Origin: Nitriliruptoraceae bacterium
GTDB taxonomy: Bacteria; Actinomycetota; Nitriliruptoria; Nitriliruptorales; Nitriliruptoraceae
DNA length: 64,000 nt
Assembly: GCA_046540855.1 (NCBI GenBank)
Contig: JBKHEJ010000001.1
Location: forward strand, 6,099 to 70,098
Direction of reading: 5' to 3'
Below the pieces are notes generated by a model, which was not told the DNA's origin, made no database searches, and saw only the letters and a program-made list of their open reading frames with translations. The translations under genes were made by a program, and so were the position numbers. Within the stretch, counting starts at the first letter, position 1, and each line of letters begins with the position of its first letter. Below, piece by piece: positions 2,003-61,887 of the stretch.

Positions 2003-2016
2003 CGAGCGTTTGTTCG
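2003..2016. promoter_or_regulatory. operator-like palindrome site 1 (CGAGCGTTTGTTCG)
   Basis: 2 mismatches to CGAACG-NN-CGTTCG. Lies in the divergent intergenic region 1934-2182; TAGGTG -10-like hexamer at 2024-2029. Confidence 0.45.
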
Positions 2017-2182
2017 TGTACGGTAGGTGGCCGGCGGGGCTCGGGCAAGTCCCGGGGACCGCCGCCGTCGTGCCCGTGCACGGTCGGTCGCGCGAGGGCG
2101 CGGCCGACCGGCACCGGGGGCTCGGCGGCATCACGGACGACGGAGACCGACGCCGCGCGCGTCGGGGTTCGATGGGAGAGGC

Positions 2183-3538
2183 ATGAAGACCGTACGGCTC
2201 GGCAGCGGCTCCGCCTACTGGGGCGACCTGATGGAACCGGCGGTCGAGCTCGCCGAGCGGGGCGGGCTCGACTACCTCAGCTTCGACCACCTCGCTGAGC
2301 TGACCCTGGCGATCCTCCAGCGGCAGCGCTCCAAGGACCCCTCGCGCGGCTACATCGCCGACATCGTCCCCTGGATGGAGGCGATCCTGCCGATCGCCCG
2401 TCGCAACGGCACGAAGCTCATCACCAACGCCGGGGGTGCGAACCCGCCCGCAGCTGGTGAGCGGGTGGTCGAGATCGCCCGCGCGCACGGGCTGGTCGGC
2501 ACGAAGGTCGCGGTGGTCACCGGCGATGACGTGCACCAGGCCATGCTCGACCTGCACGCCGAGGGCCACGCCTTCCCCAACCTCGACACCGGCGAGGTGG
2601 ACCTCTCCCGCGTGCTGGACCGGATCATCGCGGCCAACGCCTACATCGGTGCCGAGGGCATCATCACGGGCCTCGAGCAGGGCGCGGACGTCGTGGTCAC
2701 GGGCCGGGCGTCGGACAACGCGTTGTACGCGGGCCCCCTGATGCACGAGTTCGGCTGGACCTACGACGACGTCGAGAAGGTCGGTGCGGCGGTCACGATC
2801 GGGCACCTGCTGGAGTGCGCGGCACTCGCCAGCGGGTCCCTGTCCAACCTCTGGCAGGAAGCCCGCCCCCTGTCGCGCATCGGCTTCCCCTTCGCTGACG
2901 TCGACGAGGAGGCGACCGCGCTGTTCAGCAAGCTGGAGGGCACCGGCGGGCTCGTCACCGAGCTGACCCTCAAGGAGCAACTGGTCTACGAGATCGCCGA
3001 CCCGACGAGCTACCTCATGCCCGATGGCATCGCGGACTTCACCGCGCCGACCTTCGCCCAGGTCGGCCCGGACCGGGTCGAGGCCACCGGGATGACCGGC
3101 AGGGCCCGTCCGGACCAGCTCAAGGTCTGCGTCGGGTTCGAGGACGGCTGGATCGGCGAGGGGGTCGCGATGTTCTCCTGGCCCGACGCCTACGCCAAGG
3201 CGCGTAACGGCGAGGAGATCGTGCGCGACCGACTGGGGATGCTCGGGGTCTCCCCGCGCGAGATCGTGTTCGAGTACCTCGGCGTCAACACCCTGCACGG
3301 GCCGACCGCGCCCGAGCCCTCCGGTGACCTCAACGAGGTCGGTCTGCGCGTAGCGGCCCACTGCGACACCCGCGCCGAGGCCGAGGTGGTCCGCCGCGAG
3401 ATCCTGCACCTGTGGACCCTCGGCGGGGTCGGCTCGGCGATCATGCCGCCCGGGCGGCCCCGGCCGGTCACCAGCCTGTGGCCGACGCTCATCCCGCGCG
3501 ACGCGGTCCAGGTCGACGTCCAGCTGCTGGAGGCCTGA
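2183..3538 (+). CDS. AtuA-like acyclic terpene utilization family protein (DUF1446)
   Basis: ATG 2183 preceded by GGGAGAGG. MKTVRLGSGSAYWGDLMEPAVELAERGGLDYLSFDHLAELTLAIL... resembles DUF1446/AtuA as I remember it. 451 aa. Confidence 0.75.
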   Translation: MKTVRLGSGSAYWGDLMEPAVELAERGGLDYLSFDHLAELTLAILQRQRSKDPSRGYIADIVPWMEAILPIARRNGTKLITNAGGANPPAAGERVVEIARAHGLVGTKVAVVTGDDVHQAMLDLHAEGHAFPNLDTGEVDLSRVLDRIIAANAYIGAEGIITGLEQGADVVVTGRASDNALYAGPLMHEFGWTYDDVEKVGAAVTIGHLLECAALASGSLSNLWQEARPLSRIGFPFADVDEEATALFSKLEGTGGLVTELTLKEQLVYEIADPTSYLMPDGIADFTAPTFAQVGPDRVEATGMTGRARPDQLKVCVGFEDGWIGEGVAMFSWPDAYAKARNGEEIVRDRLGMLGVSPREIVFEYLGVNTLHGPTAPEPSGDLNEVGLRVAAHCDTRAEAEVVRREILHLWTLGGVGSAIMPPGRPRPVTSLWPTLIPRDAVQVDVQLLEA

Positions 3539-3541
3539 GCG

Positions 3542-4354
3542 GTGCTGCGCGAGGAACGCTCGAAGGACCGGGTCCTCACGCTCACGCTCGCGGCGCCCGA
3601 GCGGCGCAACGCGCTCGACTACGCCGCGGTGCGCGAGCTGTGCGATGCCCTGCGTGCCGCTGATGCCGACCCGGACGTCCGCGCCGTCCTGCTGCAGGCC
3701 GACGGCAAGGTGTTCTCCGCCGGGGCCAACCTGAGGGAGTTCCAGGCCGAGCTCGCCTCCTCCGCCACCGACTTCTACGAGTCGGGTGCGGTGTGGGAGG
3801 AGCTGTTCACGCTCGTGCCGACCCTCGGCACCCCGCTGGTGATCGCGGTGCACGGCCCGGCGCGGGCCGGTGCCGTCGGCCTCGTGGCGCTCGGCGACCT
3901 CGTGCTGGCCTCGCCCTCGGCGGACTTCAGCCTCAGCGAGATCAAGATCGGGCTGTTCCCGATCATGGTGCTGCCGATGGTGCAGCGGGTGGTCGGGTAC
4001 CGGGCCGCCCAGGACCTCGCGCTCACCGGCCGGGTGATCGGCGCCGAGGAGGCTCACGCCATCGGCCTGGTCAGCCGCGTGGTCGGTGACGACGAGCTGC
4101 GCGCTCGGGCCCACGAGGTGGCGGCCGAGCTGGCTGCCAGCGCGCCCCGTGCCCTGGCCTACGGACGGCAGCTGCTCGCGCGCCTCGCCGACCTGCCCTA
4201 CGCCGAAGCGGTCCACCACGCCCGCACGATGCGCGGCACCTTCCTGCACACCCCGGACATCCACGAAGGCGTCGCCGCCTTCCTCGACAAGCGTGCACCT
4301 CAGTGGCACACGCCCGATCCCGCCCGTCCGGCAACCGAGGAGGACCTCTCGTGA
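3542..4354 (+). CDS. enoyl-CoA hydratase/isomerase (crotonase) family protein
   Basis: GTG 3542, 3 nt after the upstream stop. LTLAAPERRNALD...VFSAGANLREF... is a crotonase-fold signature. 270 aa. Confidence 0.88.
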   Translation: MLREERSKDRVLTLTLAAPERRNALDYAAVRELCDALRAADADPDVRAVLLQADGKVFSAGANLREFQAELASSATDFYESGAVWEELFTLVPTLGTPLVIAVHGPARAGAVGLVALGDLVLASPSADFSLSEIKIGLFPIMVLPMVQRVVGYRAAQDLALTGRVIGAEEAHAIGLVSRVVGDDELRARAHEVAAELAASAPRALAYGRQLLARLADLPYAEAVHHARTMRGTFLHTPDIHEGVAAFLDKRAPQWHTPDPARPATEEDLS

Positions 4355-4659
4355 AGCTCGTCGACATCGCGTACGCCCGGTCGGGCGACAAGGGTGACGT
4401 CTCCAACATCGGCGTCATCGCCAAGGATCCCGCGGACTACGAGCGCATCGGGCGGGCGCTGACGCCGGAGCGGATCCGCGCGCACTTCGGCGAGTGGGTG
4501 CAGGGCGAGGTGACCGTCTACCCGATGCCCAACATCCACAGCTACAACGTCGTCTGCGAGCGCTCCTTGGGCGGTGGCGCCACCAGCACGGTCCGCTTCG
4601 ACCAGACCGGCAAGGCCATGAGCACCGCGCTGCTACGGCTCGAGCTCGAGGAGGACTGA
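4351..4659 (+). CDS. DUF4387-like small protein (usual partner or C-terminal extension of DUF1446 proteins)
   Basis: GTG 4351 overlaps the upstream stop (GTGA); RBS GAGGAGGA. VKLVDIAYARSGDKGDVSNIGVIAKDP... Family assignment is from memory. Confidence 0.65.
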   Translation: MKLVDIAYARSGDKGDVSNIGVIAKDPADYERIGRALTPERIRAHFGEWVQGEVTVYPMPNIHSYNVVCERSLGGGATSTVRFDQTGKAMSTALLRLELEED

Positions 4660-4704
4660 GCCGCCACGCACCCGCTCCGACCCGCCCCCGCTGTGGAGGA
4701 CGAC

Positions 4705-5778
4705 GTGCCCGACCTGTTCGACCCGCTCACCCTGCGCTCGGTGACCCTGCGCAACCGCCTCGGGGTCGCCCCGATGTGTCAGTACTCGGCCGTGGACGGG
4801 GTCCCGAACGAGTGGCACCTCGTCCACCTCGCCTCGCGCGCGGTCGGTGGCAACGGGCTCGTCATCGCCGAGGCCACCGGGGTGGTGCCGGAGGGGCGGA
4901 TCTCGCCGGGCTGCCTCGGCCTGTGGAACGACACCCAGACGGAGGCGTTCGCGCGCATCACCGCGCTCGTGCGGGCTGGCGGCGCGGTGCCAGCGATCCA
5001 GCTCGGGCACGCCGGCCGCAAGGCCTCCACCGCCGTACCCGCCGACGGGGAGGGCCCGATCGGACCGGACGAGGGCGGCTGGCCGACCGTCGCCCCGAGC
5101 CCGCTGCCCTTCGCGGAGGGCTTCCCCGTCCCGCACGAGCTGACCGTGGCCGAGATCGCCGCGCTGGTCGGCGCGTTCCGGGCCGCCGCCGAGCGGGCGC
5201 TCGCGGCCGGGTTCGAGCTGCTCGAGCTGCACGGCGCCCACGGCTACCTGATGCACAGCTTCCACTCCCCGGTGTCCAACCGGCGCGAGGACGCCTACGG
5301 CGGCGACCTGCTCGGACGGACCCGCTTCACCCGTGAGATCGTCGACGCGGTCCGTGAGGTCTGGCCGGAGAAGCTCCCGCTCGCGGTGCGGCTGTCCACG
5401 ACCGACTGGATCGAGGGCGGCTGGACCGTGGAGGACTCGGTCGAGCTGTCGAGGTGGCTGCGCGACGCCGGGGTCGACCTGATCGACTGCAGCTCCGGCG
5501 GGGCGGCACCGGGCGTGGCGATCCCGACCGGGCCCGGGTACCAGGTCCCCTTCGCCGAGCAGATCCGCCGCGAGGCGGGGATCGCCACCGCGGCGGTGGG
5601 AATGATCACCGAGCCCGTGCAGGCGCAGGCCATCATCGCCGAAGGCTCGGCCGACGTGGTCCTGCTCGCCCGCGAGTCGCTGCGTGACCCCTACTTCCCG
5701 CGCCGCGCCGCAGCCGAGCTCGGCATGCTCGAGCGGCTCGAGGCACCGACCCCGTACCGCCGCGCATGGGCCTCCTGA
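4705..5778 (+). CDS. NADH:flavin oxidoreductase, Old Yellow Enzyme family (YqjM-like)
   Basis: LRNRLGVAPMCQYSA...WHLVHLASRAVGG...LELHGAHGYLMHSF. GTG 4705 follows GGAGGA; alternative GTG at 4693. Confidence 0.88.
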   Translation: MPDLFDPLTLRSVTLRNRLGVAPMCQYSAVDGVPNEWHLVHLASRAVGGNGLVIAEATGVVPEGRISPGCLGLWNDTQTEAFARITALVRAGGAVPAIQLGHAGRKASTAVPADGEGPIGPDEGGWPTVAPSPLPFAEGFPVPHELTVAEIAALVGAFRAAAERALAAGFELLELHGAHGYLMHSFHSPVSNRREDAYGGDLLGRTRFTREIVDAVREVWPEKLPLAVRLSTTDWIEGGWTVEDSVELSRWLRDAGVDLIDCSSGGAAPGVAIPTGPGYQVPFAEQIRREAGIATAAVGMITEPVQAQAIIAEGSADVVLLARESLRDPYFPRRAAAELGMLERLEAPTPYRRAWAS

Positions 5779-5964
5779 GGTGCAGTGCCCGGACCCGTCG
5801 GACGGCCAAGGCCGGCCGCATGCTTGCCGCGCTAGGCTCACCTCGCCCGCGTCCGTCCGCGGGTTGCGCTGGCGGTTGGCCGATCGGCCTCGCGCTCCGG
5901 GGGTCGGTGACCGAGCGTCATCCCGTCCCGGGCGCGTACCGGGCCTATCGACGAAGGCAGGACC

Positions 5965-6564
5965 GTGGCACAGATAACCGCTGAGGCGCCGACCCGGGCG
6001 CGGATCGTCGATGCGGCGGTCGACCTGTTCCACCGGCAGGGCTACAACGCCACCTCGCTGCGCCAGATCGCCGATGAGGTCGGGCTGCAGGTGGGCAGCC
6101 TCTACAACCACATGGCCTCCAAGGAGCAGCTGCTCTACGACATCATGCGCGAGGTGATGGAGGAGCTCATCGAACACACCGAGGAGGAGATGGCTGCGGC
6201 CGGTCCGGACCCCATCGAACGGGTGCGGGCGTTCCTGCGGGCGTCGATCCACTTCCACGCGACCCGCCAGAAACAGACCTTCATCGGCAACACGGAGCTG
6301 CGGGGGCTCTCCTCCGAGCACCGCAGCGAGGTGGTGGCCCTGCGCGACCGCTACGAGTCGATCCTCCGGGAGGCGCTCCAGACCGCCCAGGACGAGGGTT
6401 CGCTCGACCTCGAGGACGTCCAGCTCGCGACCTTCGCGGCGTTGGCGCTGTGCACCTCGGTCGCGACCTGGTACCGGCCCGACGGCCGGCTCTCCCTCGA
6501 GGACCTCGACCGGCTCCTGCCAGGCTTCTTCGGCCCGCTGTGCCGGGCGACCGACCGTAGCTGA
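5965..6564 (+). CDS. TetR/AcrR family transcriptional regulator
   Basis: N-terminal HTH RIVDAAVDLFHRQGYNATSLRQIADEVGLQVGSLYNHMASKEQLL. 199 aa. Only regulator gene in the window. Confidence 0.9.
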   Translation: MAQITAEAPTRARIVDAAVDLFHRQGYNATSLRQIADEVGLQVGSLYNHMASKEQLLYDIMREVMEELIEHTEEEMAAAGPDPIERVRAFLRASIHFHATRQKQTFIGNTELRGLSSEHRSEVVALRDRYESILREALQTAQDEGSLDLEDVQLATFAALALCTSVATWYRPDGRLSLEDLDRLLPGFFGPLCRATDRS

Positions 6565-6614
6565 GGGCCAGGCCGCACCGCCGCGCTGGGCTCGCTGCGA
6601 CGCGCGTCGAGGTG

Positions 6615-6651
6615 GCGTTCGCCGCGCGAGCGAACGCACGTTAGTGTTCGC
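6615..6651. promoter_or_regulatory. operator-like palindrome site 2, multi-arm (GCGTTCGC-N7-GCGAACGC, core CGAACGCACGTTAG at 6631-6644, GTTCGC at 6646-6651)
   Basis: Between the TetR stop and the MaoC start. The right arm forms a TAGTGT -10-like box. Confidence 0.55.
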
Positions 6652-6689
6652 GCGACGTGCGAGGTTCTTCGAGGACGGGAGGCACGCAG

Positions 6690-7211
6690 GTGGCAGACGG
6701 CGCCGAGGTCGCACCATCGCTCGAGTTCCGGCCCTACGACCGGGCCTGGGAGGACTTCCCCCTCGGCACCTTCGTGCGCACCCGGGGGATGACGGTCACC
6801 GAGACCCACATCGTCAACTGGGCGAACCTCGCGGGCGACTGGCTCCCACTGCACGTCGACCACCACGTCTCCGCCCGGACGCCCTTCGGGTCGGTCATCG
6901 CCCACGGGCCGCTCACCATCGCGCTGGCGCTGGGTCTGGTGATCCAGAGCGGCTTCTTCGGTGACTCGGTCATCGCCTGGCTGGGCCTGGACGAGGTCCG
7001 GCTGCCCCGGCCCGTCCTGCCGGGTGACACGATCTACGTCCACGCCGAGGTGGTCGAGCACGTCGTGACCTCCAAGCCGCACCGGGGGCGCATCAGCCTC
7101 AGCTACGACGTGCGCAACCAGCGCGACGAGGTCGTGCTCACCTTCCGCTCCGGCTTCCTCATGTACCGGCGGGACGTCACGGACGCCAAGCCGGCCGGCG
7201 AGACGGGGTGA
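6690..7211 (+). CDS. MaoC family (R-specific enoyl-CoA) dehydratase
   Basis: Hot-dog fold pattern ...THIVNWANLAGDWLPLHVDHHVSARTPFGSVIAHGPLT... GTG 6690 after GGGAGG; the tracked ORF starts at 6657. Confidence 0.85.
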   Translation: MADGAEVAPSLEFRPYDRAWEDFPLGTFVRTRGMTVTETHIVNWANLAGDWLPLHVDHHVSARTPFGSVIAHGPLTIALALGLVIQSGFFGDSVIAWLGLDEVRLPRPVLPGDTIYVHAEVVEHVVTSKPHRGRISLSYDVRNQRDEVVLTFRSGFLMYRRDVTDAKPAGETG

Positions 7212-7269: not shown

Positions 7270-7283
7270 CGTACGAACGTTAG
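7270..7283. promoter_or_regulatory. operator-like palindrome site 3 (CGTACGAACGTTAG)
   Basis: 2 mismatches to the consensus. Sits just after TTGACC (7264-7269), upstream of the carboxyltransferase gene. Confidence 0.4.
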
Positions 7284-7396
7284 TTTTTGCTCGGGCCGGT
7301 CGGCTGGCCGAGCCCGGCTCGCACCGCGTGTGCGGACCACGACGAATCGGGTGGTACGGGACGCCGGTGCGCTGGCCGGCGGGTGAGGAGACCAGG

Positions 7397-10328: not shown

Positions 10329-10431
10329 GCGCGCCCGGTCCGATGGTGCCCCGACCCCCAGACAGCCACGCAGCACCCCCGCGCCTGCCGCCTACCGGCG
10401 GAGCCGGACCCACCCCTTCCAGGAGCGAGCC

Positions 10432-10641
10432 ATGACCGAGATGCGCGCCGAGATGGCGGCCAACGTGTGGAAGATCGTCGTCGCCGACGGCGACGCGGTC
10501 GCCGCGGGCGACACCCTCGTCATCCTCGAGTCGATGAAGATGGAGATCCCCGTCGAGGCCGAGGCCGCCGGGCTGGTCACCCTCGCCGTCGAGGAGGGCC
10601 AGGCCATCGACGAGGACGACCTCATCGCGACGATCCAGTGA
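10432..10641 (+). CDS. stand-alone biotin carboxyl carrier protein (biotinyl domain only)
   Basis: 69 aa, ...GDTLVILESMKMEIPVEA... with an MKM biotinylation motif (Lys codon 10537-10539). Confidence 0.85.
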   Translation: MTEMRAEMAANVWKIVVADGDAVAAGDTLVILESMKMEIPVEAEAAGLVTLAVEEGQAIDEDDLIATIQ

Positions 10642-10854
10642 GCGGTGCCACCCAGGACCTGCCGCCGCTGTCCGCCGACCAGTTGCTGGCGGCTACGCCG
10701 CATCAGCGGGCTAGTGCCCGACCGCCGCTGCCACGGCGACGCGGTCGCGGACGGCGTTGAGATCAGCGTGGCAGCCCACAGATGGTTCCCCGACCTGCGG
10801 ACCACCTCGATCTGCGACGGTGGCCGCAGCCCCCTCGTCGCGGCCGGGCCGTGA
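10638..10854 (+). pseudogene. decayed 5-prime relic of an S9 peptidase gene (paralog of 39787..41634)
   Basis: GTG overlapping the BCCP stop, as at 39787. VSGATQDLPPLSADQLLAATP matches VSTADVSPPLSIDQLLAATP. In another frame, RWFPDL..DGGRSPL matches ELWAFPVDGGAPERL. Premature stops, no long ORF. Confidence 0.55.
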
Positions 10855-11112: not shown

Positions 11113-11132
11113 GCGAACGAGCGATCGTTCGC
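11113..11132. promoter_or_regulatory. operator-like palindrome site 4 (GCGAACGAGCGATCGTTCGC, perfect 8-bp arms)
   Basis: Follows a TAGCCT box; 120 nt upstream of the DUF885 start. Confidence 0.6.
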
Positions 11133-13697: not shown

Positions 13698-13711
13698 CGA
13701 ACGAGCGTTAG
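13698..13711. promoter_or_regulatory. operator-like palindrome site 5 (CGAACGAGCGTTAG)
   Basis: 1 mismatch to the consensus. The right arm forms a TTAGCT box; upstream of the amidohydrolase gene. Confidence 0.55.
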
Positions 13712-14984: not shown

Positions 14985-15090
14985 GCAGCCGAGCGCTCGC
15001 GCGTGGGCGCGCTCGCACGGTGGCCGGCGCCGGTCGAGGCGTGAAGCAACGCCGCGGTCTTGCCGTGGCAGTTACCTCGATAGTAGGCTA

Positions 15091-15106
15091 ACGAACGGTC
15101 GTTCGT
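15091..15106. promoter_or_regulatory. operator-like palindrome site 6 (ACGAACGGTCGTTCGT, perfect 7-bp arms)
   Basis: Starts 1 nt after TAGGCT (15084-15089); upstream of the binding-protein gene. Confidence 0.6.
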
Positions 15107-17135: not shown

Positions 17136-17149
17136 CGAGCGTACGTTCA
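17136..17149. promoter_or_regulatory. operator-like palindrome site 7 (CGAGCGTACGTTCA)
   Basis: 2 mismatches to the consensus. Embedded in the larger inverted repeat GGAGGCGA...TCGCCTCC (17131-17158); upstream of the second binding-protein gene. Confidence 0.5.
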
Positions 17150-17266
17150 TTCGCCTCCCGTCCAGAGGTACGGGGAGCGTCTGGGACCTCGCCGTGCTCG
17201 GCCACCTCGGTGGATGCCCCGTCAGCAGGCGCGGACCTCCACCGACCGAACCACCGAGGGAGTTGT

Positions 17267-22352: not shown

Positions 22353-22370
22353 CGAACGTTCGCTCGTTCG
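22353..22370. promoter_or_regulatory. operator-like palindrome site 8, two overlapping copies (CGAACGTTCGCTCGTTCG)
   Basis: In the divergent region between the M20-GGT operon and the PPOX-BNR operon; TAGCCT box at 22343-22348. Confidence 0.6.
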
Positions 22371-39326: not shown

Positions 39327-39402
39327 CTCCGGGTCCGTTCCTTCGTCGTCGCGTTCAGAGCTGCAGGAGGGGTACCGACCGCTAGGGTAGAAGCACTCCG
39401 TA

Positions 39403-39416
39403 CGAACGCTTGCACG
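39403..39416. promoter_or_regulatory. operator-like palindrome site 10 (CGAACGCTTGCACG within GTACGAACGCTTGCACGTGTAC)
   Basis: 15 nt after TAGGGT (39383-39388). Divergent region between the binding-protein operon and the relic/S9 peptidase. Confidence 0.5.
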
Positions 39417-41763: not shown

Positions 41764-41777
41764 CGAGCGAGCGTTCG
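41764..41777. promoter_or_regulatory. operator-like palindrome site 11 (CGAGCGAGCGTTCG)
   Basis: 1 mismatch to the consensus. Extra half-site GCGAGCGAACCG at 41733-41744; TAGGGT at 41792-41797; upstream of the LLM gene. Confidence 0.55.
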
Positions 41778-41860
41778 TTCAGCGGCTCGGCTAGGGTCTC
41801 CTCCTGCAGCCGACCGGCGCCCGCGTTCGCGTGGAGCCGCCGTCACGACAGGAGCGGACC

Positions 41861-45806: not shown

Positions 45807-45898
45807 GGGCCTCGCTCGTTGGCCGGGGGCGTCAACGGCGGCGGCCGCCGGACCCGGGGGGATCCGACGGCCGCCGGTGGTGCCTGGTGCAGGCGACG

Positions 45899-47593: not shown

Positions 47594-47675
47594 GTGGTTC
47601 TCCTTCAGGGTCAGGCGCCCCTGGCGGGGCCTGGGGAGCGGCCAGACGGCCGCGGGGGTCTCCCATGGCGCTGAA

Positions 47676-47689
47676 CGAACGACCGTTCA
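47676..47689. promoter_or_regulatory. operator-like palindrome site 12 (CGAACGACCGTTCA within TGAACGAACGACCGTTCA)
   Basis: 1 mismatch to the consensus. Lies about 15 nt downstream of the putative -10 of the minus-strand promoter. Confidence 0.6.
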
Positions 47690-51673: not shown

Positions 51674-51735
51674 ACGGTGGCTCCTCGTCGTCGCCGGCGG
51701 CTGCGTCGCTCCGTCCTACGGATAGTGGCTCAGAA

Positions 51736-51749
51736 CAAGCGCTCGTTCG
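51736..51749. promoter_or_regulatory. operator-like palindrome site 13 (CAAGCGCTCGTTCG; outer arms GAAC-N8-GTTC)
   Basis: Divergent region between the ABC operon (start 51673) and RidA (51849); TAGTGG box at 51723-51728. Confidence 0.5.
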
Positions 51750-51848: not shown

Positions 51849-52250
51849 ATGGCGACGCGGCACCACCGCGACGGCGGGGGGTGGGAGCAGGCGGCCGGCT
51901 ACGCCCGTGCGGTCCGGCGGGGGACCCGGATCGAGGTGAGCGGCACCACCGTGGAGGGTCGCGGCCCGAACGCGCCCGAGGAGACGCGTCGGCAGACCGA
52001 GGAGGCTCTCGACCGCGCCCTCGCCGCTGTCGCCGCGCTCGGCGGCAGCGACGAGGACGTCGTGCGCACGCGGCTGTTCCTCGCCCCCGGCGCGGACTGG
52101 CGAGAGGCCGCGGCGGCCCACGCGGCGCGGCTCGGTGTGGTCGCACCCGCGAACACCACCCTGTACGTCGCCGGGCTGATCGCAGGAGCGCTGGTCGAGG
52201 TGGAGGTCGAGGCGGAGGTGCTGGGCGGGAGCGAGGTGGGTGCCGGGTGA
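51849..52250 (+). CDS. RidA/YjgF/L-PSP family protein
   Basis: ...AAGYARAVRRGTRIEVSGTT...QTEEALDRALAAVAALGGSDEDVVRTRLFL...LVEVEVEA. 133 aa. Confidence 0.75.
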   Translation: MATRHHRDGGGWEQAAGYARAVRRGTRIEVSGTTVEGRGPNAPEETRRQTEEALDRALAAVAALGGSDEDVVRTRLFLAPGADWREAAAAHAARLGVVAPANTTLYVAGLIAGALVEVEVEAEVLGGSEVGAG

Positions 52251-53239
52251 GGTACAGCCTGCGGCTGAACAACGACACCGAGCCGGACCTGCTCGTGGCG
52301 CTGGCACGCACGGCTGAGGCAGCGGGGTTCGACCAGCTCTGGGTGTCCAACGACCTGTTCCTGCGCAGCGCGCCGGTGCTGGTGACCCACGTCGCGGCCG
52401 CCACCTCGACGATCTCGCTGGGGACCGGGATCATGAACCCCTACTCGGTGCACCCGGCGGAGCTCGCCATGCTCGCCAGCACCCTGCAGGAGGTCAGCGG
52501 CGGCCGGTTCCTGCTCGGGCTCGGGGCCGGTGCCGAGGACTTCCTGCGCTGGGCGGGTATGGCGCGGGAACGGCCGCTCACGCGCACCCGCGAGGCGGTT
52601 GCGGCGATCCGAGCGCTCCTGGAGGGAGGCTCACCGGTGAGCGTCGAGGCAGCCGGTGCCGGTTGGACCACGGAGGCGTATCTGCGCACCCCGGCCTGTC
52701 CGACCCCCCTCTACCTCGGCGTCATGAGCCCCCGGATGCTGGCGCTGGCCGGTGCGGTCGCCGACGGTGCGCTGCCCCTGCTGTTCCCACCGGAGCACTT
52801 CCCGACCGCCGCGAGCCAGGCGGCCGACGGGGCGCGCGAGGCCGGCCGGGACCCCGCGGAGCTGGACCTCGCCGCGTGCGTCTGGGTCTCGATCGATGAG
52901 GACCGTGCTGCGGCACGCCATGCGCTGGCGACCAAGATCGCCTACTACGGGCCGGCCTTCGCGCCCTACCTGCTCGCTCGCGCCGGGCTCGCGGTCGCGG
53001 ACTTCGCCCCGATCACCGAGGTGCTCGAGCGAGAGGGCCTCGACGCTGCGGCCGAGCACGTGACCGAGCCGATGCTGCGCCTCGGTATCGCCGGTGACGC
53101 CGACGAGGTGGTGGACCGGTGCCGGTGGCTGGTCGCACAGGGCGCCCGTCACCTCTCCTTCGGCCCGCCGCTCGGGCCCGACCCCCTGCGGGCGGTCGAG
53201 GTGCTCGGCACCGAGGTGCTCCCCGCGCTGCGCGACTGA
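52247..53239 (+). CDS. LLM class flavin/F420-dependent oxidoreductase
   Basis: GTG 52247 overlaps the RidA stop (GTGA). VRYSLRLNNDT...AGFDQLWVSNDLF...GRFLLGLGAG... 330 aa. Confidence 0.8.
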   Translation: MRYSLRLNNDTEPDLLVALARTAEAAGFDQLWVSNDLFLRSAPVLVTHVAAATSTISLGTGIMNPYSVHPAELAMLASTLQEVSGGRFLLGLGAGAEDFLRWAGMARERPLTRTREAVAAIRALLEGGSPVSVEAAGAGWTTEAYLRTPACPTPLYLGVMSPRMLALAGAVADGALPLLFPPEHFPTAASQAADGAREAGRDPAELDLAACVWVSIDEDRAAARHALATKIAYYGPAFAPYLLARAGLAVADFAPITEVLEREGLDAAAEHVTEPMLRLGIAGDADEVVDRCRWLVAQGARHLSFGPPLGPDPLRAVEVLGTEVLPALRD

Positions 53240-53292
53240 TCGCGACGCCCCCACGACCGGCCTGGCCGCACCGCTACGCTGCCAGTACCGTA

Positions 53293-53306
53293 CGAACGCT
53301 CGCACG
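53293..53306. promoter_or_regulatory. operator-like palindrome site 14 (CGAACGCTCGCACG; overlapping CGTACGAACGCTCG)
   Basis: 36 nt upstream of the M24 peptidase ATG; preceded by a TACGCT box. Confidence 0.5.
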
Positions 53307-53341: not shown

Positions 53342-54490
53342 ATGACCAGCGAGATCGTCTTCGACCACGCGGCCCGCCGCCGGCGCTTCGATGCCCTCAT
53401 GGACCAGGAGGGGGTCGACCTCGCCTGGTTCCCGATCAGCGCGGACCTCGAGTACCTGACCGGCATCCAGCGCCGCGTCCCCACCTTCGGTGAGGTGAAC
53501 TACACCCACGGGTGGGCGACCGGGGCGTTCCTGGCCCGCGGTAGGGAGCCGGTCTTCGTCCTGCCCCGGATGGTGACCGAGTTCGACCTGCCCGAGGGCG
53601 TGCCAGGCGAGGTCGTCACCGTCAACGAGCTCGACGACGGCGACGAGGTGTTCCAGCGCGTCGCGAGCCGGCTGGGCACCCCGCGGACGATCGCGGTCGG
53701 GGCGCGGACCTGGGGTTCGGCGATGCTGCGGATCCTGCAGGCCTTCCCCGGCGCCCAGCTCCAGGACGGCACGCGGCTGCTCAACCGGCTGCGCCGCATC
53801 AAGGACGAGCAGGAGCTCGACCTGATGCGGACGGTGTGCCGGATGGCCGACACCGCGCTCGGCGAGACGACACCGCGGGTCGAGGCCGGGGTCACCGAGC
53901 TCGACCTCGCCGAGGAGGTGAACTACCACCTGCTCCGCAACGGCGCGCGGACCTGGTCCTTCGACACCGCGGTGTGGTCGATGGGTCCGCTCGACGACCG
54001 GGACGCGACCGTGCGCATCTCCCAACAGGCGCTGCGCCCGGGGATGGGGGTCTCGTTCGACTTCGGTGCGGTCCACCTCGGCTACTGCTCCGACTTCGGG
54101 CGCACGATCCACATCGGCGAGCCCGGTGAGGAGTACGAGCGGGTCTACCACCTGGTGATGGCTGCCCAGCAGGCCGGGATCGACGCCGTCCGCCCGGGCG
54201 TGACCGCCGCCGAGGTCCACCAGGCCACCCGCAAGGTCATCGTCGAGGGCGGCTACGGCGACTGGTTCCGTCACCGCACCGGGCACGGCATCGGGCTGGA
54301 CGTCCACGAGGAGCCCTACATCTCCGAGGAGGACCAGACGCCGCTCGAGCCCGGGATGACCTTCACGATCGAGCCGAGCATCTTCTGGCCCGGTCGGGTC
54401 GGGGTGCGGGTCGAGGACATCATCGTGTGCACCGACGAAGGCGGCGTGAACCTCAACGAGTACAGCCACGACCTCGTGGCCCGAGACTGA
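53342..54490 (+). CDS. M24 family Xaa-Pro peptidase (prolidase/aminopeptidase P-like)
   Basis: ...DFGAVHLGYCSDFGRT...HRTGHGIGLDVHEEPYI...EPGMTFTIEPSIF...GVRVEDIIV. 382 aa. Confidence 0.9.
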   Translation: MTSEIVFDHAARRRRFDALMDQEGVDLAWFPISADLEYLTGIQRRVPTFGEVNYTHGWATGAFLARGREPVFVLPRMVTEFDLPEGVPGEVVTVNELDDGDEVFQRVASRLGTPRTIAVGARTWGSAMLRILQAFPGAQLQDGTRLLNRLRRIKDEQELDLMRTVCRMADTALGETTPRVEAGVTELDLAEEVNYHLLRNGARTWSFDTAVWSMGPLDDRDATVRISQQALRPGMGVSFDFGAVHLGYCSDFGRTIHIGEPGEEYERVYHLVMAAQQAGIDAVRPGVTAAEVHQATRKVIVEGGYGDWFRHRTGHGIGLDVHEEPYISEEDQTPLEPGMTFTIEPSIFWPGRVGVRVEDIIVCTDEGGVNLNEYSHDLVARD

Positions 54491-55260
54491 TGCCGAGCAC
54501 CGACCGCTGCCGCATCGGTGTGCAGCTCTGGCCGCAGGCGACCACCACCGACGCGCTGCGCCGCGCCGCCGTGGACGCCGAGGAGGCGGGGGTCGACAGC
54601 ATCTGGATCTGGGACCACTTCTTCCCGCTCCGCGGGGATCCTCAGGCGGCGCACTTCGAGTCGTGGACGCTGCTGTCGGCCGTCGCCGTGGAGACCTCCC
54701 GGGTCCAGCTCGGGCACCTGGTGGGTGGTGCGGCCTACCGCAACCCGCACCTGGTCGCCGACATGGCACGCACGGTCGACCACCTCAGCCACGGCCGGTT
54801 CGTGCTCGGGCTCGGTGCCGGGTGGTTCCAGCGCGACTACGAGGAGTACGAGTACCCGTTCGGTACGGTCGGCACGCGGGTCCGCGACCTGGACGCCTAC
54901 CTGTACCGGGTGCGCCGGCGCCTCACCCGGCTGACACCGCCGCCCGTCGGGCCGCTGCCGATCCTGGTCGGGGGGATGGGGGAGCGGGTCATGCTGCGCC
55001 TCGTCGCCGAGCACGCCGACGTGTGGAACGGCGCCGGTTCGCCGGAGGAGTTTGCGCGCGCCAACGCCACCCTGGACGGCTGGTGCGAGCGGATCGGTCG
55101 GGACCCCGCCACGATCGAGCGCACCTGCCACATCGCTCTCGAGGCTGCGGACGAGGTCGAGGCCTACGTCGCCGCGGGAGCGCAGGAGCTGATGATCCAG
55201 TGCCCCGACCCCTTCGACCTGGGGCCTGCCCGTCGCATGCTCGCGGCCGTGGGCGCCTGA
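54490..55260 (+). CDS. LLM class flavin/F420-dependent oxidoreductase
   Basis: ATG 54490 shares one nt with the upstream stop (TGATG). ...GVDSIWIWDHFF...GRFVLGLGAGW... 256 aa. Confidence 0.8.
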   Translation: MPSTDRCRIGVQLWPQATTTDALRRAAVDAEEAGVDSIWIWDHFFPLRGDPQAAHFESWTLLSAVAVETSRVQLGHLVGGAAYRNPHLVADMARTVDHLSHGRFVLGLGAGWFQRDYEEYEYPFGTVGTRVRDLDAYLYRVRRRLTRLTPPPVGPLPILVGGMGERVMLRLVAEHADVWNGAGSPEEFARANATLDGWCERIGRDPATIERTCHIALEAADEVEAYVAAGAQELMIQCPDPFDLGPARRMLAAVGA

Positions 55261-55321: not shown

Positions 55322-56230
55322 GTGGTCCCCTTTCGGATCGGCGCGAAGCTGCCGAGCTCCGGCGCCCAGCCGGCAGAGCACGGCATCCCGGCCATGGCCC
55401 GGCGGCTCGAGGTCGCCGGCTTCGACTCGGCCTGGGTCTCCGACCACGTGCTGATGACCGAGGACACCTCGCGCTCCTACTACCCCTTCGGCGATGACGG
55501 CTCGCCCGGGTGGGACGTGGAGATGCCGTGGTACGACGCGCTCATCGTGCTCGCGCAGGCCGCGGCCGTGACCGAGACGATCGAGCTCGGGACCGCCGTG
55601 CTCGTGCTCCCGCAGCGGCACCCGATCGTGCTCGCCAAGCAGGTCGCCTCGTTGGACGCGCTCGCGGGAGGTCGCGTGGCGCTCGGGGTCGGGGCCGGGT
55701 GGTTCCGGGAGGAGTTCGAGGCCCTCGGGGTGGACTTCGACGCCCGCGGGAAGCGGTTCTCGGAGTGGCTGGAGCTGCTGCGGCGCTGCTGGCAGGGCCG
55801 CCCCGAAGCCTTCGACGGCGTCCACTACCAGCTCCCTGCCGGGGTCATCCACGAGCCCACCCCCGCACGGCACGTGCCCCTGCTGATCGGTGGGGTCTCC
55901 GGCATCGCGCTGAGGCGGGCGGCGACCCAGGGCGACGGGTGGCTCGGCCTGCAGCGCGCCGACCGCCTCGACCCCGATGAGGTGGCGGGGGCCGTGGCGC
56001 GCATGCGCGCGGAGGCGACCGCCGCCGGACGCGATCCGGCCGAGCTTCGGGTCGTGCTCAGGATCATCCTCTCGGCGGGCCGGACCGATCTCGTCGCCGC
56101 CACTGTCCCGGCCCTCAGGGCCGCTGGTGTGGACGAGATCGTGGTCGACACCGATTGGGAGGCCGACCTCGACGAGCAGCGCGTCCTCGACCGGCTCCGG
56201 GACGCCGCGAGCCAGGGAGCAGCCCGATGA
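55322..56230 (+). CDS. LLM class flavin/F420-dependent oxidoreductase
   Basis: GTG 55322 after CAGGAGC. ...AGFDSAWVSDHVL...GRVALGVGAGW... 302 aa. Confidence 0.8.
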   Translation: MVPFRIGAKLPSSGAQPAEHGIPAMARRLEVAGFDSAWVSDHVLMTEDTSRSYYPFGDDGSPGWDVEMPWYDALIVLAQAAAVTETIELGTAVLVLPQRHPIVLAKQVASLDALAGGRVALGVGAGWFREEFEALGVDFDARGKRFSEWLELLRRCWQGRPEAFDGVHYQLPAGVIHEPTPARHVPLLIGGVSGIALRRAATQGDGWLGLQRADRLDPDEVAGAVARMRAEATAAGRDPAELRVVLRIILSAGRTDLVAATVPALRAAGVDEIVVDTDWEADLDEQRVLDRLRDAASQGAAR

Positions 56231-58555: not shown

Positions 58556-58569
58556 CGAACGAGCGTTCA
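58556..58569. promoter_or_regulatory. operator-like palindrome site 15 (CGAACGAGCGTTCA)
   Basis: 1 mismatch to the consensus. Immediately followed by TAGGCT (58571-58576), 28 nt before the cupin ATG. Confidence 0.6.
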
Positions 58570-61009: not shown

Positions 61010-61100
61010 CGCGCGGGTGCTGCTCGCCTACGGTGGCGGCCTACGCGCGGCGCCTTGCTCGCCGGCCCCCCCCGGGTGCTAGGCTCCGCCGTGGCACGAA

Positions 61101-61114
61101 CGAACGCTCGTTCT
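61101..61114. promoter_or_regulatory. operator-like palindrome site 16 (CGAACGCTCGTTCT within ACGAACGAACGCTCGTTCTGCACG)
   Basis: About 15 nt after TAGGCT (61080-61085); 46 nt upstream of the bioY start. Confidence 0.55.
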
Positions 61115-61159
61115 GCACGGGTCCACCCTCGGATCCGTGCGCCGTCCCAGGAGAACAAC

Positions 61160-61741
61160 GTGAGCTCGATCGCCGCACCGAACCCGATCGCCCCGGGCCG
61201 TGTCCTGGCCGATCTCGTCCCTGGCAGCCGCGTCAAGGACGTGGCGCTGGTGGGCGCCTTCGCCGCCGCCATCGGCCTGTCGGCGCAGATCGCCGTCCCG
61301 CTCCCGTTCACCCCGGTGCCGGTCACCGGCCAGACCTTCGCCGTGCTCCTCGGCGCCGCGGCGCTCGGCGCCGGCCGTGCCACCCTCGGGGCCTCGCTCT
61401 ACCTCGTCCTCGGGCTGGTCGGGGTCCCGTGGTTCACCGCCACCGGCGGCGCCTCCTTCGGCTACATCGTCGGCTTCCTCGTCGCGGCGGCGCTCGTCGG
61501 CCGGCTCGCGCGGCTCGGCAACGACCGCACCGTCGGGCGGACGGTCGCGCTGATGGCGGTCGGCAACCTCGCGATCTACGCCTTCGGGGTCGCCGGTCTC
61601 GCGCTGTACCTCGGCGTCGGTGTGGTGGAGGCCACCGTTCTCGGCGCCGTCCCCTTCCTGGTCGGCGACGCCCTCAAGCTCGTCCTGGCCGCGGCGCTCC
61701 TGCCGGCCACCTGGAAGCTCGTCGGTCCCACGCAGGGCTGA
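61160..61741 (+). CDS. bioY: BioY family biotin transporter (ECF S-component type), solitary
   Basis: GTG 61160 after CAGGAGAA. ...AFAAAIGLSAQIAVPLPFTPVPVTGQTFAVLLGAAALG...GYIVGFLVAA...VPFLVGDALKLVLAA. Confidence 0.85.
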   Translation: MSSIAAPNPIAPGRVLADLVPGSRVKDVALVGAFAAAIGLSAQIAVPLPFTPVPVTGQTFAVLLGAAALGAGRATLGASLYLVLGLVGVPWFTATGGASFGYIVGFLVAAALVGRLARLGNDRTVGRTVALMAVGNLAIYAFGVAGLALYLGVGVVEATVLGAVPFLVGDALKLVLAAALLPATWKLVGPTQG

Positions 61742-61750
61742 CGCCCCACG

Positions 61751-61790
61751 GGCGCCGGCCGGCCGAACCCCCCGTCGGTCGGCCGGCGCC
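61751..61790 (+). terminator. GC-rich hairpin after bioY
   Basis: GGCGCCGGCCG...CGGCCGGCGCC (11-bp perfect outer stem plus inner pairing), 10 nt after the stop. Confidence 0.55.
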
Positions 61791-61873
61791 GCTCCACCTA
61801 CCCGGCCGGCGGGTCACCCTCGGACCGGTTCCGGTGCGGTGCCCACCGCACCTGTGGACGCTGCCGACCGCTC

Positions 61874-61887
61874 CGAGCGAGTGTTCG
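61874..61887. promoter_or_regulatory. operator-like palindrome site 17 (CGAGCGAGTGTTCG)
   Basis: 2 mismatches to the consensus; 74 nt upstream of the E1 alpha start. Confidence 0.45.

Follow-up and report, generated by a model that had tools for sequence, protein, structure and literature searches.

A 14-base palindrome, CGAACG-NN-CGTTCG, is present at the promoter of almost all operons in the 64-kb stretch of DNA analysed here (the window), which comes from a Nitriliruptoraceae MAG (Actinomycetota), an uncultured actinobacterium. With a probability of roughly 0.7, this palindrome is the operator of a repressor of the TetR_C_24 subfamily, often in two copies with a 4-bp offset, the likeliest binder being the protein encoded at positions 5965 to 6564. 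The DNA shows the motif itself, its location at promoters, that it is conserved and that it co-occurs with the subfamily; what lies behind these findings is most likely a TetR repressor of the acyl-CoA type whose regulon is unusually large. If so, peptide uptake and branched-chain amino-acid breakdown would be switched together by one repressor.

Frequency and structure of the palindrome

Allowing up to two mismatches, CGAACGNNCGTTCG matched the window 34 times, compared with 7.78 +/- 3.10 matches expected from 100 dinucleotide-preserving shuffles of the window, none of which reached 34 (maximum 16). The 17 palindromes listed in a preliminary description of this DNA are real, 16 of them lying within two mismatches of CGAACGNNCGTTCG and site 10 having three. 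All 11 matches with at most one mismatch are intergenic and fall within these 17 sites; the 10 matches in coding DNA, which makes up 92.4% of the window according to the gene model, all carry two mismatches and are about as numerous as expected by chance. With a position weight matrix (threshold 12 bits) trained on the same window sites, 29 of 31 matches were intergenic. The palindrome had also been said to occupy most promoter gaps, and it does: of the 19 gaps that measure 80 bp or more, 16 hold sites, as does the 36-bp divergent gap 1991-2026, and the three without one are 5779-5964 (5' of the TetR gene), 10329-10431 and 45807-45898. CG dinucleotides recur every 4 bp throughout the motif, and about seven sites have the 18-mer form GAAC(G/A)-NN-CG-NN-CGTTC, in which a second 14-mer overlaps the first with a shift of 4 bp.

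Predicted operator sites and their conservation

Site 1 (1999-2016; CAAGCGAGCGTTTGTTCG, 17.7 bits) lies in the divergent gap between the CoA-transferase (-) and AtuA (+) genes, and the counterpart gaps in the related loci L004 and L054 hold two sites, each oriented alike relative to its gene. Site 2 (6616-6651, with a core at 6631-6644 plus extra arms; CGAACGCACGTTAG, one mismatch) is 5' of MaoC, its right arm overlapping a -10-like box, TAGTGT; in a footprinting of orthologous promoters, as proposed earlier, the motif was the only invariant block in a four-genome alignment (A1) of MaoC promoters. Site 3 (7270-7287; CGTACGAACGTTAGTTTT) precedes the carboxyltransferase-BC-BCCP operon, and carboxyltransferase promoters keep the motif in L003, L004 and L053. 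At both the MaoC and the carboxyltransferase promoters, the sites are retained at orthologous positions although the surrounding intergenic DNA has diverged. Further orthologues preceded by sites, with AtuA/CoA-transferase among them, encode LLM1, DUF885, amidohydrolase, SBP5, M20/PNPOx, M24, bioY and E1a proteins of 61-90% identity.

Site 4 (11113-11132; GCGAACGAGCGATCGTTCGC), an 18/20-mer double site 5' of DUF885-SDR, is a perfect GCGAACGA-N4-TCGTTCGC, and the identical core CGAACGAGCGATCGTTCG is found 5' of the DUF885 orthologue in L092. Site 5 (13698-13711; CGAACGAGCGTTAG, one mismatch) precedes an amidohydrolase gene whose orthologues in L092 and L093 are also preceded by sites. Site 6 (15088-15106; no mismatches), 5' of the peptide-binding protein gene SBP5a, contains the perfect palindrome ACGAACG-GT-CGTTCGT at 15091-15106, with a TAGGCT -10 box ending 1 nt before it; the SBP5a orthologue in L093 has sites, and that in L092 only a weak one (12.3 bits). 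Site 7 (17136-17153; CGAGCGTACGTTCATTCG) is 5' of SBP5b, whose L093 orthologue bears CAAACGAGCGTTCGTTCG. The double site 8 (22353-22370; CGAACGTTCGCTCGTTCG), in the divergent gap between M20-GGT (-) and PNPOx-BNR (+), is conserved in L092 and L093. Site 9 (35309-35328; GCGAACAATCGCTCGTTCGC), also double, precedes oppD1-oppF1-oppB1-oppC1-GGT2 (-), and on the gene strand a TAGGGT box lies upstream of it by 21 nt. The weakest, site 10 (39399-39416; CGTACGAACGCTTGCACG, 13.8 and 14.1 bits), lies in the divergent gap between SBP5c (-) and BCCP-remnant-S9 (+), and its three mismatches and 14.1 bits refer to the register first reported (39403-39416; CGAACGCTTGCACG).

Site 11 (41764-41781; CGAGCGAGCGTTCGTTCA), 5' of LLM1-EthD-amidohydrolase, is placed upstream of a TAGGGT box and is conserved 5' of the LLM1 orthologue in L004/L092. 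Site 12 (47672-47689; TGAACGAACGACCGTTCA, one mismatch) precedes SBP5d (-), and site 13 (51732-51749; AGAACAAGCGCTCGTTCG) lies in the divergent gap between the oppB3 operon (-) and RidA-LLM2 (+). Site 14 (53289-53306; CGTACGAACGCTCGCACG) heads the M24 peptidase-LLM-LLM-DUF885 operon, and the orthologous M24 promoter in L085 bears CATACGAACGTACGCTCG after a TAGCGT box. Site 15 (58556-58569; CGAACGAGCGTTCA, one mismatch), 5' of cupin-...-EamA, abuts a TAGGCT -10 box, so that both -10-like boxes quoted in the preliminary description, before site 6 and after site 15, are indeed present. The double site 16 (61097-61114; CGAACGAACGCTCGTTCT), 5' of bioY, is conserved in L085. Site 17 (61874-61887; CGAGCGAGTGTTCG, two mismatches) precedes the 2-oxoacid dehydrogenase E1 alpha/beta genes; E1a orthologues in L089 and L091 are preceded by sites and a site in L095 heads an E1a-containing operon, while no counterpart was found 5' of E1a in L085.

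When a matrix built from the window only was applied to six independent related loci, 25 site clusters were found in 8.1 kb of intergenic DNA versus 2 in 106.9 kb of coding DNA, a density about 165-fold higher between genes than within them; the Nitriliruptoria DNA compared all comes from this one gene neighbourhood or its vicinity. This outcome of a comparison that had been suggested beforehand, together with the conservation above, supports the earlier reading of the motif as a putative regulatory operator.

Position relative to promoters

In 19 of the 21 site-gene pairs, the gene strand has a TANNNT hexamer at a distance of 11-25 bp from the centre of the motif, and the operator would accordingly lie somewhere from about -35 to +20. 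The hexamer centres vary in position, lying up to 25 bp upstream or downstream of the centre of the motif: about 12 sites are just 3' of a -10 box and would therefore be transcribed, and at least five are upstream of the -10 box and thus outside the transcript. Location within about 25 bp of predicted TAGNNT-type -10 boxes is the geometry of a repressor, as had been proposed.

The TetR gene and its association with the motif

The gene at 5965-6564 (+ strand) encodes a TetR-family regulator, the candidate repressor, with Pfam matches to TetR_N (53.6 bits) and TetR_C_24 (105.6 bits), both above cutoff. It had been described as the only regulator gene, and Pfam found no other among the called genes of the window. 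The best sequence matches of its product in the PDB are 3VPR (E 1.4e-26, residues 9-184), 5K7F (5e-19), KstR2 (2.6e-15) and FadR. Orthologues with 79-95% identity occur in syntenic Nitriliruptoraceae loci. The JGI label given to orthologues is 'cholesterol catabolism regulator'.

In five loci, 63 bp separate the TetR gene from the best-conserved site downstream of it, and in a 4.16-Mb genome a 51% identical orthologue resides inside the same cluster. The association extends much further: around 76 distant TetR homologues (29-40% identity), sites number 1.18 per kb up to 350 bp from the gene, versus 0.036 per kb elsewhere; the top match of the whole locus of about 20 kb adjoins the TetR gene in 7 of 14 clade groups; and in seven or more other lineages the motif lies beside TetR_C_24 homologues that share just 33-42% identity. 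Motif-bearing clades have recognition helices of the xGSLYNH, VPGLYHH, LSNLYNY and ASMYAH types, and a myxobacterial clade with an LPGSLHYRY helix has no motif. In L089, E1a and an operon encoding a TetR with 42% identity and the same VGSLYNH helix diverge from a gap that holds a site. The link between motif and TetR made in the preliminary description is thus strengthened by this co-occurrence, as it is by the operators of characterised relatives. The TetR gene's own 5' gap has a TAGGCT promoter and, unusually for a TetR, is devoid of sites in the window, L004 and L054; transcription from the AtuA promoter, itself presumably under operator control, may also run through the gene.

Alternative explanations

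The operator may be real and yet be bound at most sites by a regulator encoded elsewhere. That regulator might be a TetR_C_24 paralogue that shares the recognition helix, or a global regulator from a different family; the local TetR would then act just on the atu/liu-type genes next to it, or on none of the genes here. Nitriliruptoria do have paralogues whose recognition helix is the same or similar (42% identity in L089, 36% in L034), so a different one could occupy some or most sites. The site-free promoter of the local TetR gene points the same way, 17 site clusters are many for a single TetR, and cross-binding is documented for TTHB023 and SbtR, Thermus TetR paralogues with overlapping consensus sequences (PMC7022988). 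However, the motif tracks the TetR subfamily over the lineages described above, the best-conserved sites adjoin the TetR gene, and no second regulator gene was found among the called genes of the 64 kb. We consider outside control unlikely and infer that the sites are bound, and the genes repressed, by the 5965-6564 protein rather than by a same-helix paralogue.

A generic promoter or transcript-start element, or a 5'-leader RNA hairpin on most genes, could account for a motif in almost all promoter-bearing gaps, for the sites that would be transcribed, and for the like orientation of the divergent copies in L004. Against this, the spacing to the -10 box varies and some sites precede that box; imperfect sites do not form the palindrome hairpin, z-scores are weak, an Rfam search of the sequence gave no match, and conservation resides in the sequence and not in base pairing. 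In related genomes, moreover, unrelated cluster neighbours (a CLIPPER_2/collagen-like divergent pair, SDR, AhpC and OsmC) lack the motif, as does the TetR promoter gap in three genomes. The absence from unrelated neighbours argues against a generic element or hairpin, which we regard as improbable, and equally against two still weaker candidates. The Gram-positive Cheo box of LexA is GAAC-N4-GTTC, of which the window motif is formally a subset, and four sites (at 15092, 47676, 58556 and 61101) have it intact; but the downstream genes are catabolic and the window has no DNA-repair gene, motif positions 6 and 9 (G, C), within the spacer of that box, are conserved as strongly as the arms, 26% of arms have G at position 4, and the motif accompanies TetR genes in many genera, making SOS boxes very improbable. 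A REP-like or mobile repeat without regulatory role would explain many intergenic copies, but hardly copies that share only 14-18 bp with unrelated flanks, persist at orthologous positions amid diverged DNA, and lie at promoters and away from convergent gene ends (the convergent SBP5/GGT and TetR/thiolase gaps, for example, are empty); we give it almost no credence.

Proposed regulon

Under repression by the 5965-6564 protein, one dimer, or two on the 18-mers, would sit at or beside the -10 box or transcription start and block RNA polymerase, and about 21 transcription units would be controlled through the 17 site clusters. The programme would comprise: peptide import via four Opp/Dpp-type systems; hydrolysis of peptides and amides (M20, M24, S9, GGT, DUF885 and amidohydrolases); luciferase-like oxidoreductases; leucine/isovalerate-type catabolism (AtuA, enoyl-CoA hydratase, acyl-CoA carboxylase, CoA-transferase, thiolase and branched-chain 2-oxoacid dehydrogenase); and BioY biotin uptake, which would supply the carboxylase. 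Judging only from the ligands of relatives, release would most likely be triggered by a short branched acyl-CoA of the pathway itself.

Comparison with known systems

The characterised relatives PfmR, AibR and PsrA, and PaaR as a presumed relative, bind ..CG-NN-CG.. palindromes built like the window motif. Among solved structures, 3VPR, which we take to be PfmR (TTHB023) of Thermus thermophilus HB8, matches the window TetR best in sequence. KstR and KstR2 are likewise TetR-family repressors of the acyl-CoA type with 14-bp palindromes, the KstR operator being TnnAACnnGTTnnA (AAC-N2-GTT) and that of KstR2 AnCAAGnnCTTGnT. The KstR-type likeness suggested earlier holds for the regulator type and palindrome length but not for the spacing, since the window motif is AAC-N4-GTT, and the comparison is therefore loose; the window has no steroid-catabolic genes.

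PfmR represses acyl-CoA/fatty-acid genes, in an operon with MaoC, acyl-CoA dehydrogenase and acyl-CoA ligase, from sites that cover +1 and have the consensus A(A/C)YG-ry-CR(G/T)T (PMC7022988). The AACG-NN-CGTT of the window fits the REPSA consensus of PfmR, (a/c)Y(g/t)A(A/C)YGryCR(g/t)T(c/a)R(g/t) (PMC7022988). However, PfmR belongs to a different phylum, prefers ACCG/CGGT-like arms, has a handful of target promoters versus at least 17 in the window, and autoregulates through its own promoter, a feature not seen for the window TetR. The statement in the preliminary description that the Thermus thermophilus TetR-family repressor PaaR (TTHA0973) has the promoter-derived consensus CNAACGNNCGTTNG proved correct (PMC6651687). 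This consensus contains the window motif exactly, although in vitro selection gave AACnAACGTTnGTT, without the 2-nt spacer (PMC6651687). PaaR controls phenylacetate degradation from two promoters, and the window has no paa genes.

AibR of Myxococcus xanthus (PDB 5K7F/5K7H/5K7Z) binds isovaleryl-CoA, and its operator is an 18-bp inverted repeat, ACCTACCG-N2-CGGTAGGT, with the 2-nt spacer and CG-NN-CG core of the window motif (PMC5389471). AibR is linked to the isovaleryl-CoA/leucine node, as the window TetR would be through its proposed regulon, and matches it in the PDB at E 5e-19. Unlike the proposed repressor, AibR binds DNA only with its ligand present (co-repressor logic); its arms are ACCG rather than AACG, and it has two or three targets. 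The proteobacterial PsrA, LiuQ and LiuR (PsrA and LiuQ being TetR-family proteins) have regulons for fatty-acid and branched-chain amino-acid use known from comparative genomics, with the Shewanella lipid-catabolism motif AAACgNNcGTTT (PMC2532739); they belong to a different phylum, average 5-14 genes per genome and, unlike the window, have no peptide-transport or peptidase members. The TetR repressor BkaR of mycobacteria (Rv2506/MSMEG_4718) autoregulates and directly controls about 10-12 genes, and its operator, GTTAnTnnnnAnTAAC, is unrelated to the window motif, so that it is no orthologue by the operator test. As it adjoins and controls accD1-accA1-MaoC-like-bkdABC (PMC3920632), BkaR is a functional analogue in another actinobacterial lineage.

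Operator-like palindromes within the window

When the window was searched with the consensus CGAACGNNCGTTCG of the 14-base palindrome CGAACG-NN-CGTTCG, allowing up to two mismatches, 34 matches were found, compared to 7.78±3.10 in 100 dinucleotide-preserving shuffles of the window, none of which reached 34. All matches with no more than one mismatch fall at the coordinates reported in the preliminary description, and the 10 matches located within genes each carry two mismatches and approximate the number expected by chance. Sixteen of the 17 palindromic sites listed in that description were recovered with up to two mismatches; the remaining one, site 10 (39403-39416, in the divergent gap between the peptide-binding protein gene SBP5c and the S9 peptidase gene), has three mismatches and is the weakest. 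The perfect palindromes quoted at 11113-11132 and 15091-15106, as well as the two TAGGCT boxes, are all present. A matrix trained on these same sites gives 31 window matches of at least 12 bits, of which 29 are intergenic.

A site is present in 16 of the 19 window gaps of at least 80 bp and also in the 36-bp divergent gap 1991-2026. The siteless gaps are 5779-5964 (5' of the TetR gene), 10329-10431 (intra-operon) and 45807-45898. The 17 site clusters precede approximately 21 transcription units (divergent gaps counted twice), which hold every called gene with the possible exception of the TetR gene. More than 50 genes and 17 operator clusters occur within one 64-kb stretch.

CG dinucleotides recur every 4 bp through the motif (C1G2, C5G6, C9G10 and C13G14), and an unconstrained EM model yielded (G/A)AA-CGA(G/A)-CG(A/T)N-CGTT-CG. 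About seven sites are 18-mers, GAAC(G/A)-NN-CG-NN-CGTTC, which comprise two 14-mers at a 4-bp offset, each 18-mer having one strong arm and one CGAGCG/CGCTCG arm. As paired scoring at ±4 bp partly reflects autocorrelation of the CG period, we infer, rather than observe, two dimers per long site. Comparison of an asymmetric 22-mer model with the direction of transcription gave a mixed result (agreement at some sites, disagreement at others and ambiguity at several), and therefore no directional claim is made.

Position of the motif relative to promoters

In 19 of 21 site-gene pairs, the gene strand has a TANNNT hexamer no more than 25 bp from the motif centre, the commonest being TAGGCT, TAGCCT, TAGGGT and TAGCGT. 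These G-containing -10 boxes are those that promoters here use, and the TetR gene has one (5834-5839) without an operator. In about 12 cases the hexamer is 11-25 bp upstream of the motif, which would centre the operator at about +2 to +15; in the other cases it is 7-25 bp downstream, which would place the operator within the spacer or over the -35 region (these positions being deduced from the -10-like hexamers). The preliminary description had noted that a right arm reading CGTTAG can itself form a -10-like box, and this is seen in the MaoC and carboxyltransferase (CT) promoters, where CGTTAG merges into TAGTGT or TAGTTT. Such variable spacing to both sides of the -10 box is compatible with a repressor operator, not with a core promoter element.

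Gene content

Because the window has a G+C content of 71%, genes were called from codon-position G+C together with a codon model; they occupy 92.4% of the window and were named by Pfam. In map order, thiolase and CoA-transferase genes on the minus strand come first, and genes for AtuA, enoyl-CoA hydratase, an AtuA-ferredoxin domain and an OYE flavoprotein precede the TetR gene (5965-6564), which is followed by MaoC dehydratase and then by CT, biotin carboxylase and biotin carboxyl carrier protein (BCCP) genes. Next are DUF885 and SDR, an amidohydrolase, two SBP_bac_5 binding proteins, GGT and M20 on the minus strand, PNPOx with two BNR/sortilin-like proteins, three more Opp-type transporter sets with two further binding proteins, and an S9 peptidase. 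Four luciferase-like (LLM) oxidoreductases, EthD, RidA, an M24 peptidase, a second DUF885, cupin, EamA, BioY and then the alpha and beta subunits of a 2-oxoacid dehydrogenase E1 (E1a and E1b, the latter at 62992-63984) complete the map. No other regulator gene was found among the Pfam-named called genes, in agreement with the earlier view of TetR as the only regulator in the window.

Several features of this map deserve mention in their own right. Separate genes (2027-3538 and 4351-4659) code for the AtuA domain and the AtuA ferredoxin-like domain, with the enoyl-CoA hydratase gene in between, a split arrangement also present in the related loci L004, L054 and L094. The BNR/sortilin-Vps10-type repeat proteins are tandem paralogues of about 1,060-1,070 amino acids each (22862-26080 and 26102-29281), located 3' of the PNPOx-family gene as in the related loci L092 and L093. 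The luciferase-like oxidoreductases (possibly F420-dependent) and the PNPOx-family protein are encoded at 41831-42943, 52247-53239, 54490-55260, 55322-56230 and 22414-22797. In the related locus L085, an FrhB/FdhB-like gene (5689-6813) shares operons with luciferase-like oxidoreductases, and there are hints of F420-linked chemistry within the putative regulon. A luciferase-like monooxygenase C-terminal fragment at 35605-35812 (+), inside the 708-bp gap 35106-35813, shows 51-71% amino acid identity to residues 260-327 of LLM2 (52247-53239) and is a pseudogene remnant between two Opp sets.

Just 5' of the S9 peptidase gene lies a degraded duplicate of the biotin carboxylase/BCCP end (39604-39847 versus 10375-10701, also 10662-10730), with 94% identity over 85 nt, 78% identity over 166 nt and an internal deletion of about 80 nt. 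The intact BCCP gene is trailed by an S9 N-terminal remnant, and in L004 the S9 gene directly adjoins the BCCP gene. These observations suggest insertion or transposition of the 11.2-39.6 kb block (DUF885 to SBP5c), with its junctions duplicated. ORF 39661-41634 opens with the BCCP remnant, and the true S9 start is probably near 39787.

Conservation in related loci

Homologues of TetR occur in two Nitriliruptoraceae MAGs with 95% (L003) and 80% (L004) identity, and in JGI metagenome contigs with 89% (L053) and 83% (L054) identity. Further loci were obtained by homologue searches with E1 alpha and SBP5a (another peptide-binding protein) followed by contig look-ups: L085 (85% identity), L089 (77%), L093 (70%), L095 (61%, from a 4.68-Mb assembly), L091 and L094 (from one 4.16-Mb assembly; 68% for E1a and 51% for TetR), and L092, which is on the same contig as L004. 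All related DNA compared is located in or near the same gene neighbourhood.

Phylogenetic footprinting, which the preliminary description had proposed, supported the motif: in MaoC promoters aligned from four genomes, the sole invariant block is CGAACG-A-CGTTAGT. In the aligned CT promoters, the conserved block consists of the -10 box and the motif together, and the CoA-transferase/AtuA divergent gap of L004 and L054 has two motif copies, one for each promoter. A search of the fetched related loci for the exact consensus gave no matches, the sites having emerged from the matrix scan. With the window-trained matrix, sites were found 5' of the orthologues of DUF885 (here with an identical 18-mer), amidohydrolase, SBP5a/b, M20/PNPOx, LLM1, M24, bioY, AtuA, acyl-CoA dehydrogenase/LLM, CT/MaoC and E1a.

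In six related loci with independent gene calls, 25 site clusters are present in 8.1 kb of intergenic DNA versus 2 in 106.9 kb of coding DNA (approximately 165-fold), the opposite of the equal density that had been named earlier as evidence against an operator; 22 of the 39 gaps of at least 80 bp in these loci carry a site. Promoter gaps without a site include the divergent CLIPPER_2/collagen-like and SDR/hypothetical gaps, those 5' of AhpC and OsmC, and the gap 5' of the TetR gene in each genome, and therefore the motif is not on every promoter. Regulon membership varies by lineage, as the matrix scan found no site in the promoter gap of the aminotransferase-LLM-DUF885 operon of L089, nor at E1a in L085. 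No intergenic site was seen in L096 and L097, two distant SBP5 paralogue loci that say nothing about the Nitriliruptoraceae lineage.

TetR and its association with the motif

The candidate repressor carries PF00440 (53.6 bits, cutoff 24) and PF17932, TetR_C_24 (105.6 bits, cutoff 26.4), and a site lies 63 bp downstream of its gene in five loci. Among distant homologues (29-40% identity), a site occurs no farther than 350 bp from the gene in 37 of 76 loci, with hosts that include Rhodococcus, Aldersonia, Pseudonocardia, Brevibacterium, Nocardioides and a Chloroflexota MAG. The site density around the 76 homologues is 1.18 per kb in the 350-bp flanks versus 0.036 per kb elsewhere (about 33-fold). 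As TetR flanks are intergenic by nature, the position of the best hit in each locus of about 20 kb was also examined, and it adjoins the TetR gene in 7 of 14 clade groups (p ~1e-3 by a rough binomial estimate, with about 2 of 15 gaps flanking the gene). Recognition helices in the motif-bearing clades are of the VGSLYNH, VPGLYHH, LSNLYNY and ASMYAH types, and no motif was found in the myxobacterial clade (helix LPGSLHYRY) and several other clades. In L089, a TetR with 42% identity and the same VGSLYNH helix belongs to an operon divergent from E1a, and a site is present in the shared gap. The homologues occur in differing gene contexts (acyl-CoA synthetase, MFS, APH, MaoC), and therefore it is the regulator, not the target genes, that travels with the motif. 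This phylogenetic co-occurrence is the strongest argument for TetR as the candidate binder.

In the window and in L004, no site of at least 11 bits lies in the promoter gap of the TetR gene itself (186-304 bp), and the best that L054 offers there is an 11.4-bit match. An autoregulatory site in the own promoter is typical of the TetR family, not obligatory. The TAGGCT promoter at 5834-5839 may therefore drive constitutive production of the repressor, and additional expression by read-through from the controlled AtuA operon would be possible.

Alternative explanations

A paralogous TetR or another factor may occupy most of the sites, as TetR paralogues occur in related genomes and there is a precedent for cross-binding (PMC7022988). 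In L034, a paralogous Nitriliruptoraceae TetR (36% identity, helix VPAIYYHF) is flanked (1296-1443 and 2212-2225) by CGAACGTTCGCTAG and CTATCGATCGCTAG, palindromes related to but distinct from the window motif, and a family of TetR paralogues with overlapping specificities is suggested.

The motif is unlikely to be a generic promoter or RNA element, given its variable distance from the -10 box, the unrelated promoters that lack it, and the weakness of the hairpins; the RNA-hairpin reading was rejected on these weak hairpins together with the lack of any match to Rfam covariance models at the gathering threshold in the window. Nor is it likely to be a REP-like repeat, as the sites share no flanks, sit at orthologous promoter positions and, unlike REP elements, are absent from convergent gene ends. 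The Gram-positive LexA (Cheo) box of the SOS response is GAAC-N4-GTTC, and the motif is formally a subset of it; four operators (15092, 47676, 58556 and 61101) also fit this box, so that LexA cross-talk is formally possible. However, these four are the only sites with both arms intact, the targets are catabolic with no repair genes downstream, and the internal G/C positions are conserved, making LexA an improbable explanation.

Proposed mechanism and significance

What was observed is a conserved motif that overlaps promoters and co-occurs with a TetR subfamily, and a mechanism of control by TetR can be proposed. When its ligand is scarce, the TetR dimer would occupy the operators and block initiation; release would be brought about by a short branched acyl-CoA (isovaleryl-, 3-methylcrotonyl-, isobutyryl- or 2-methylbutyryl-CoA being candidates) arising from imported peptides by way of the 2-oxoacid dehydrogenase. 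The relatives of TetR and the acyl-CoA-producing target genes point to an acyl-CoA as the probable ligand. Uptake, hydrolysis and catabolism would thereby be induced in a feed-forward manner, along with biotin uptake to serve the carboxylase. We assign a probability of roughly 0.3 to the tentative reading that this Nitriliruptoria TetR is a global nutritional regulator, CodY/Lrp-like, an acyl-CoA-sensing repressor that couples peptide import, peptide hydrolysis, F420/flavin-type oxidoreductases, branched-chain catabolism and biotin uptake through perhaps at least 100 operators genome-wide, many of them with two dimers phased 4 bp apart.

Soda lakes and saline habitats harbour abundant Nitriliruptoria, which have hardly been cultured, and we know of no transcriptional regulons described for them. 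The proposed regulator-operator pair and its regulon are previously undescribed, in a class that is unstudied, although the kind itself is well known and no new regulatory principle is revealed. What is provided is a concrete candidate pair, a map of probably co-controlled peptide-uptake and amino acid-degradation genes, and a physiological context for genes of unknown role (DUF885, LLM, EthD, cupin and BNR/sortilin-like). It also offers an example of a normally local TetR-type regulator with a regulon grown to dozens of genes.

Comparison with known regulators

The best solved-structure match to TetR is 3VPR (E 1.4e-26), which we take to be PfmR/TTHB023 of Thermus thermophilus, followed by 4MXM/4MO7 ("Transcriptional regulator I2", 4e-19), 5K7F/5K7H/5K7Z (5e-19), and later by KstR2 (2.6e-15), DarR and Bacillus/Thermus FadR (1e-11 to 3e-6). 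The consensus selected by TTHB023 is (a/c)Y(g/t)A(A/C)YGryCR(g/t)T(c/a)R(g/t); in the genome, its sites span +1 (PMC7022988). 5K7F, 5K7H and 5K7Z are three states of AibR, which binds the operator ACCTACCG-N2-CGGTAGGT and has isovaleryl-CoA as its ligand (PMC5389471). For Thermus PaaR, the consensus given in the preliminary description matches the promoter-derived CNAACGNNCGTTNG, and in vitro selection gave AACnAACGTTnGTT (PMC6651687); the Shewanella lipid-catabolism motif is AAACgNNcGTTT (PMC2532739). Thus, a CG-ending arm, a 2-nt spacer and a CG-starting arm are common in the acyl-CoA-sensing TetR branch. The FadR-Tt/PfmR/PaaR/AibR/KstR2 subgroup has operators of the type ..(A/C)CG-NN-CG(G/T).., to which the window core AACG-NN-CGTT conforms, and at the sequence level the window motif is a new variant of this CG-NN-CG design. 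The KstR-type operator is TnnAACnnGTTnnA, with a 2-nt spacer between AAC and GTT; the likeness to it proposed earlier fails, as every window site has 4 nt between AAC and GTT.

Two assignments of orthology were rejected. TetR was first guessed from its like neighbours to be an orthologue of BkaR (Rv2506), a mycobacterial TetR adjoining accD1/accA1/bkd, but the proven BkaR operator, GTTAnTnnnnAnTAAC (PMC3920632), is unrelated to CGAACGNNCGTTCG, and because of this difference BkaR is a functional analogue only. The myxobacterial homologues L043-L052 had been considered AibR orthologues; the helix of 5K7F is KAGLYHH versus their LPGSLHYRY, so that they represent another clade.

The regulons of the TetR-family regulators LiuQ, RutR and PsrA average 5-11 genes per genome (PMC5343134), and size is the feature by which the present regulon stands out. 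It reaches beyond acyl-CoA catabolism to peptide transporters and peptidases, an extension that is conserved at 70-83% protein identity.
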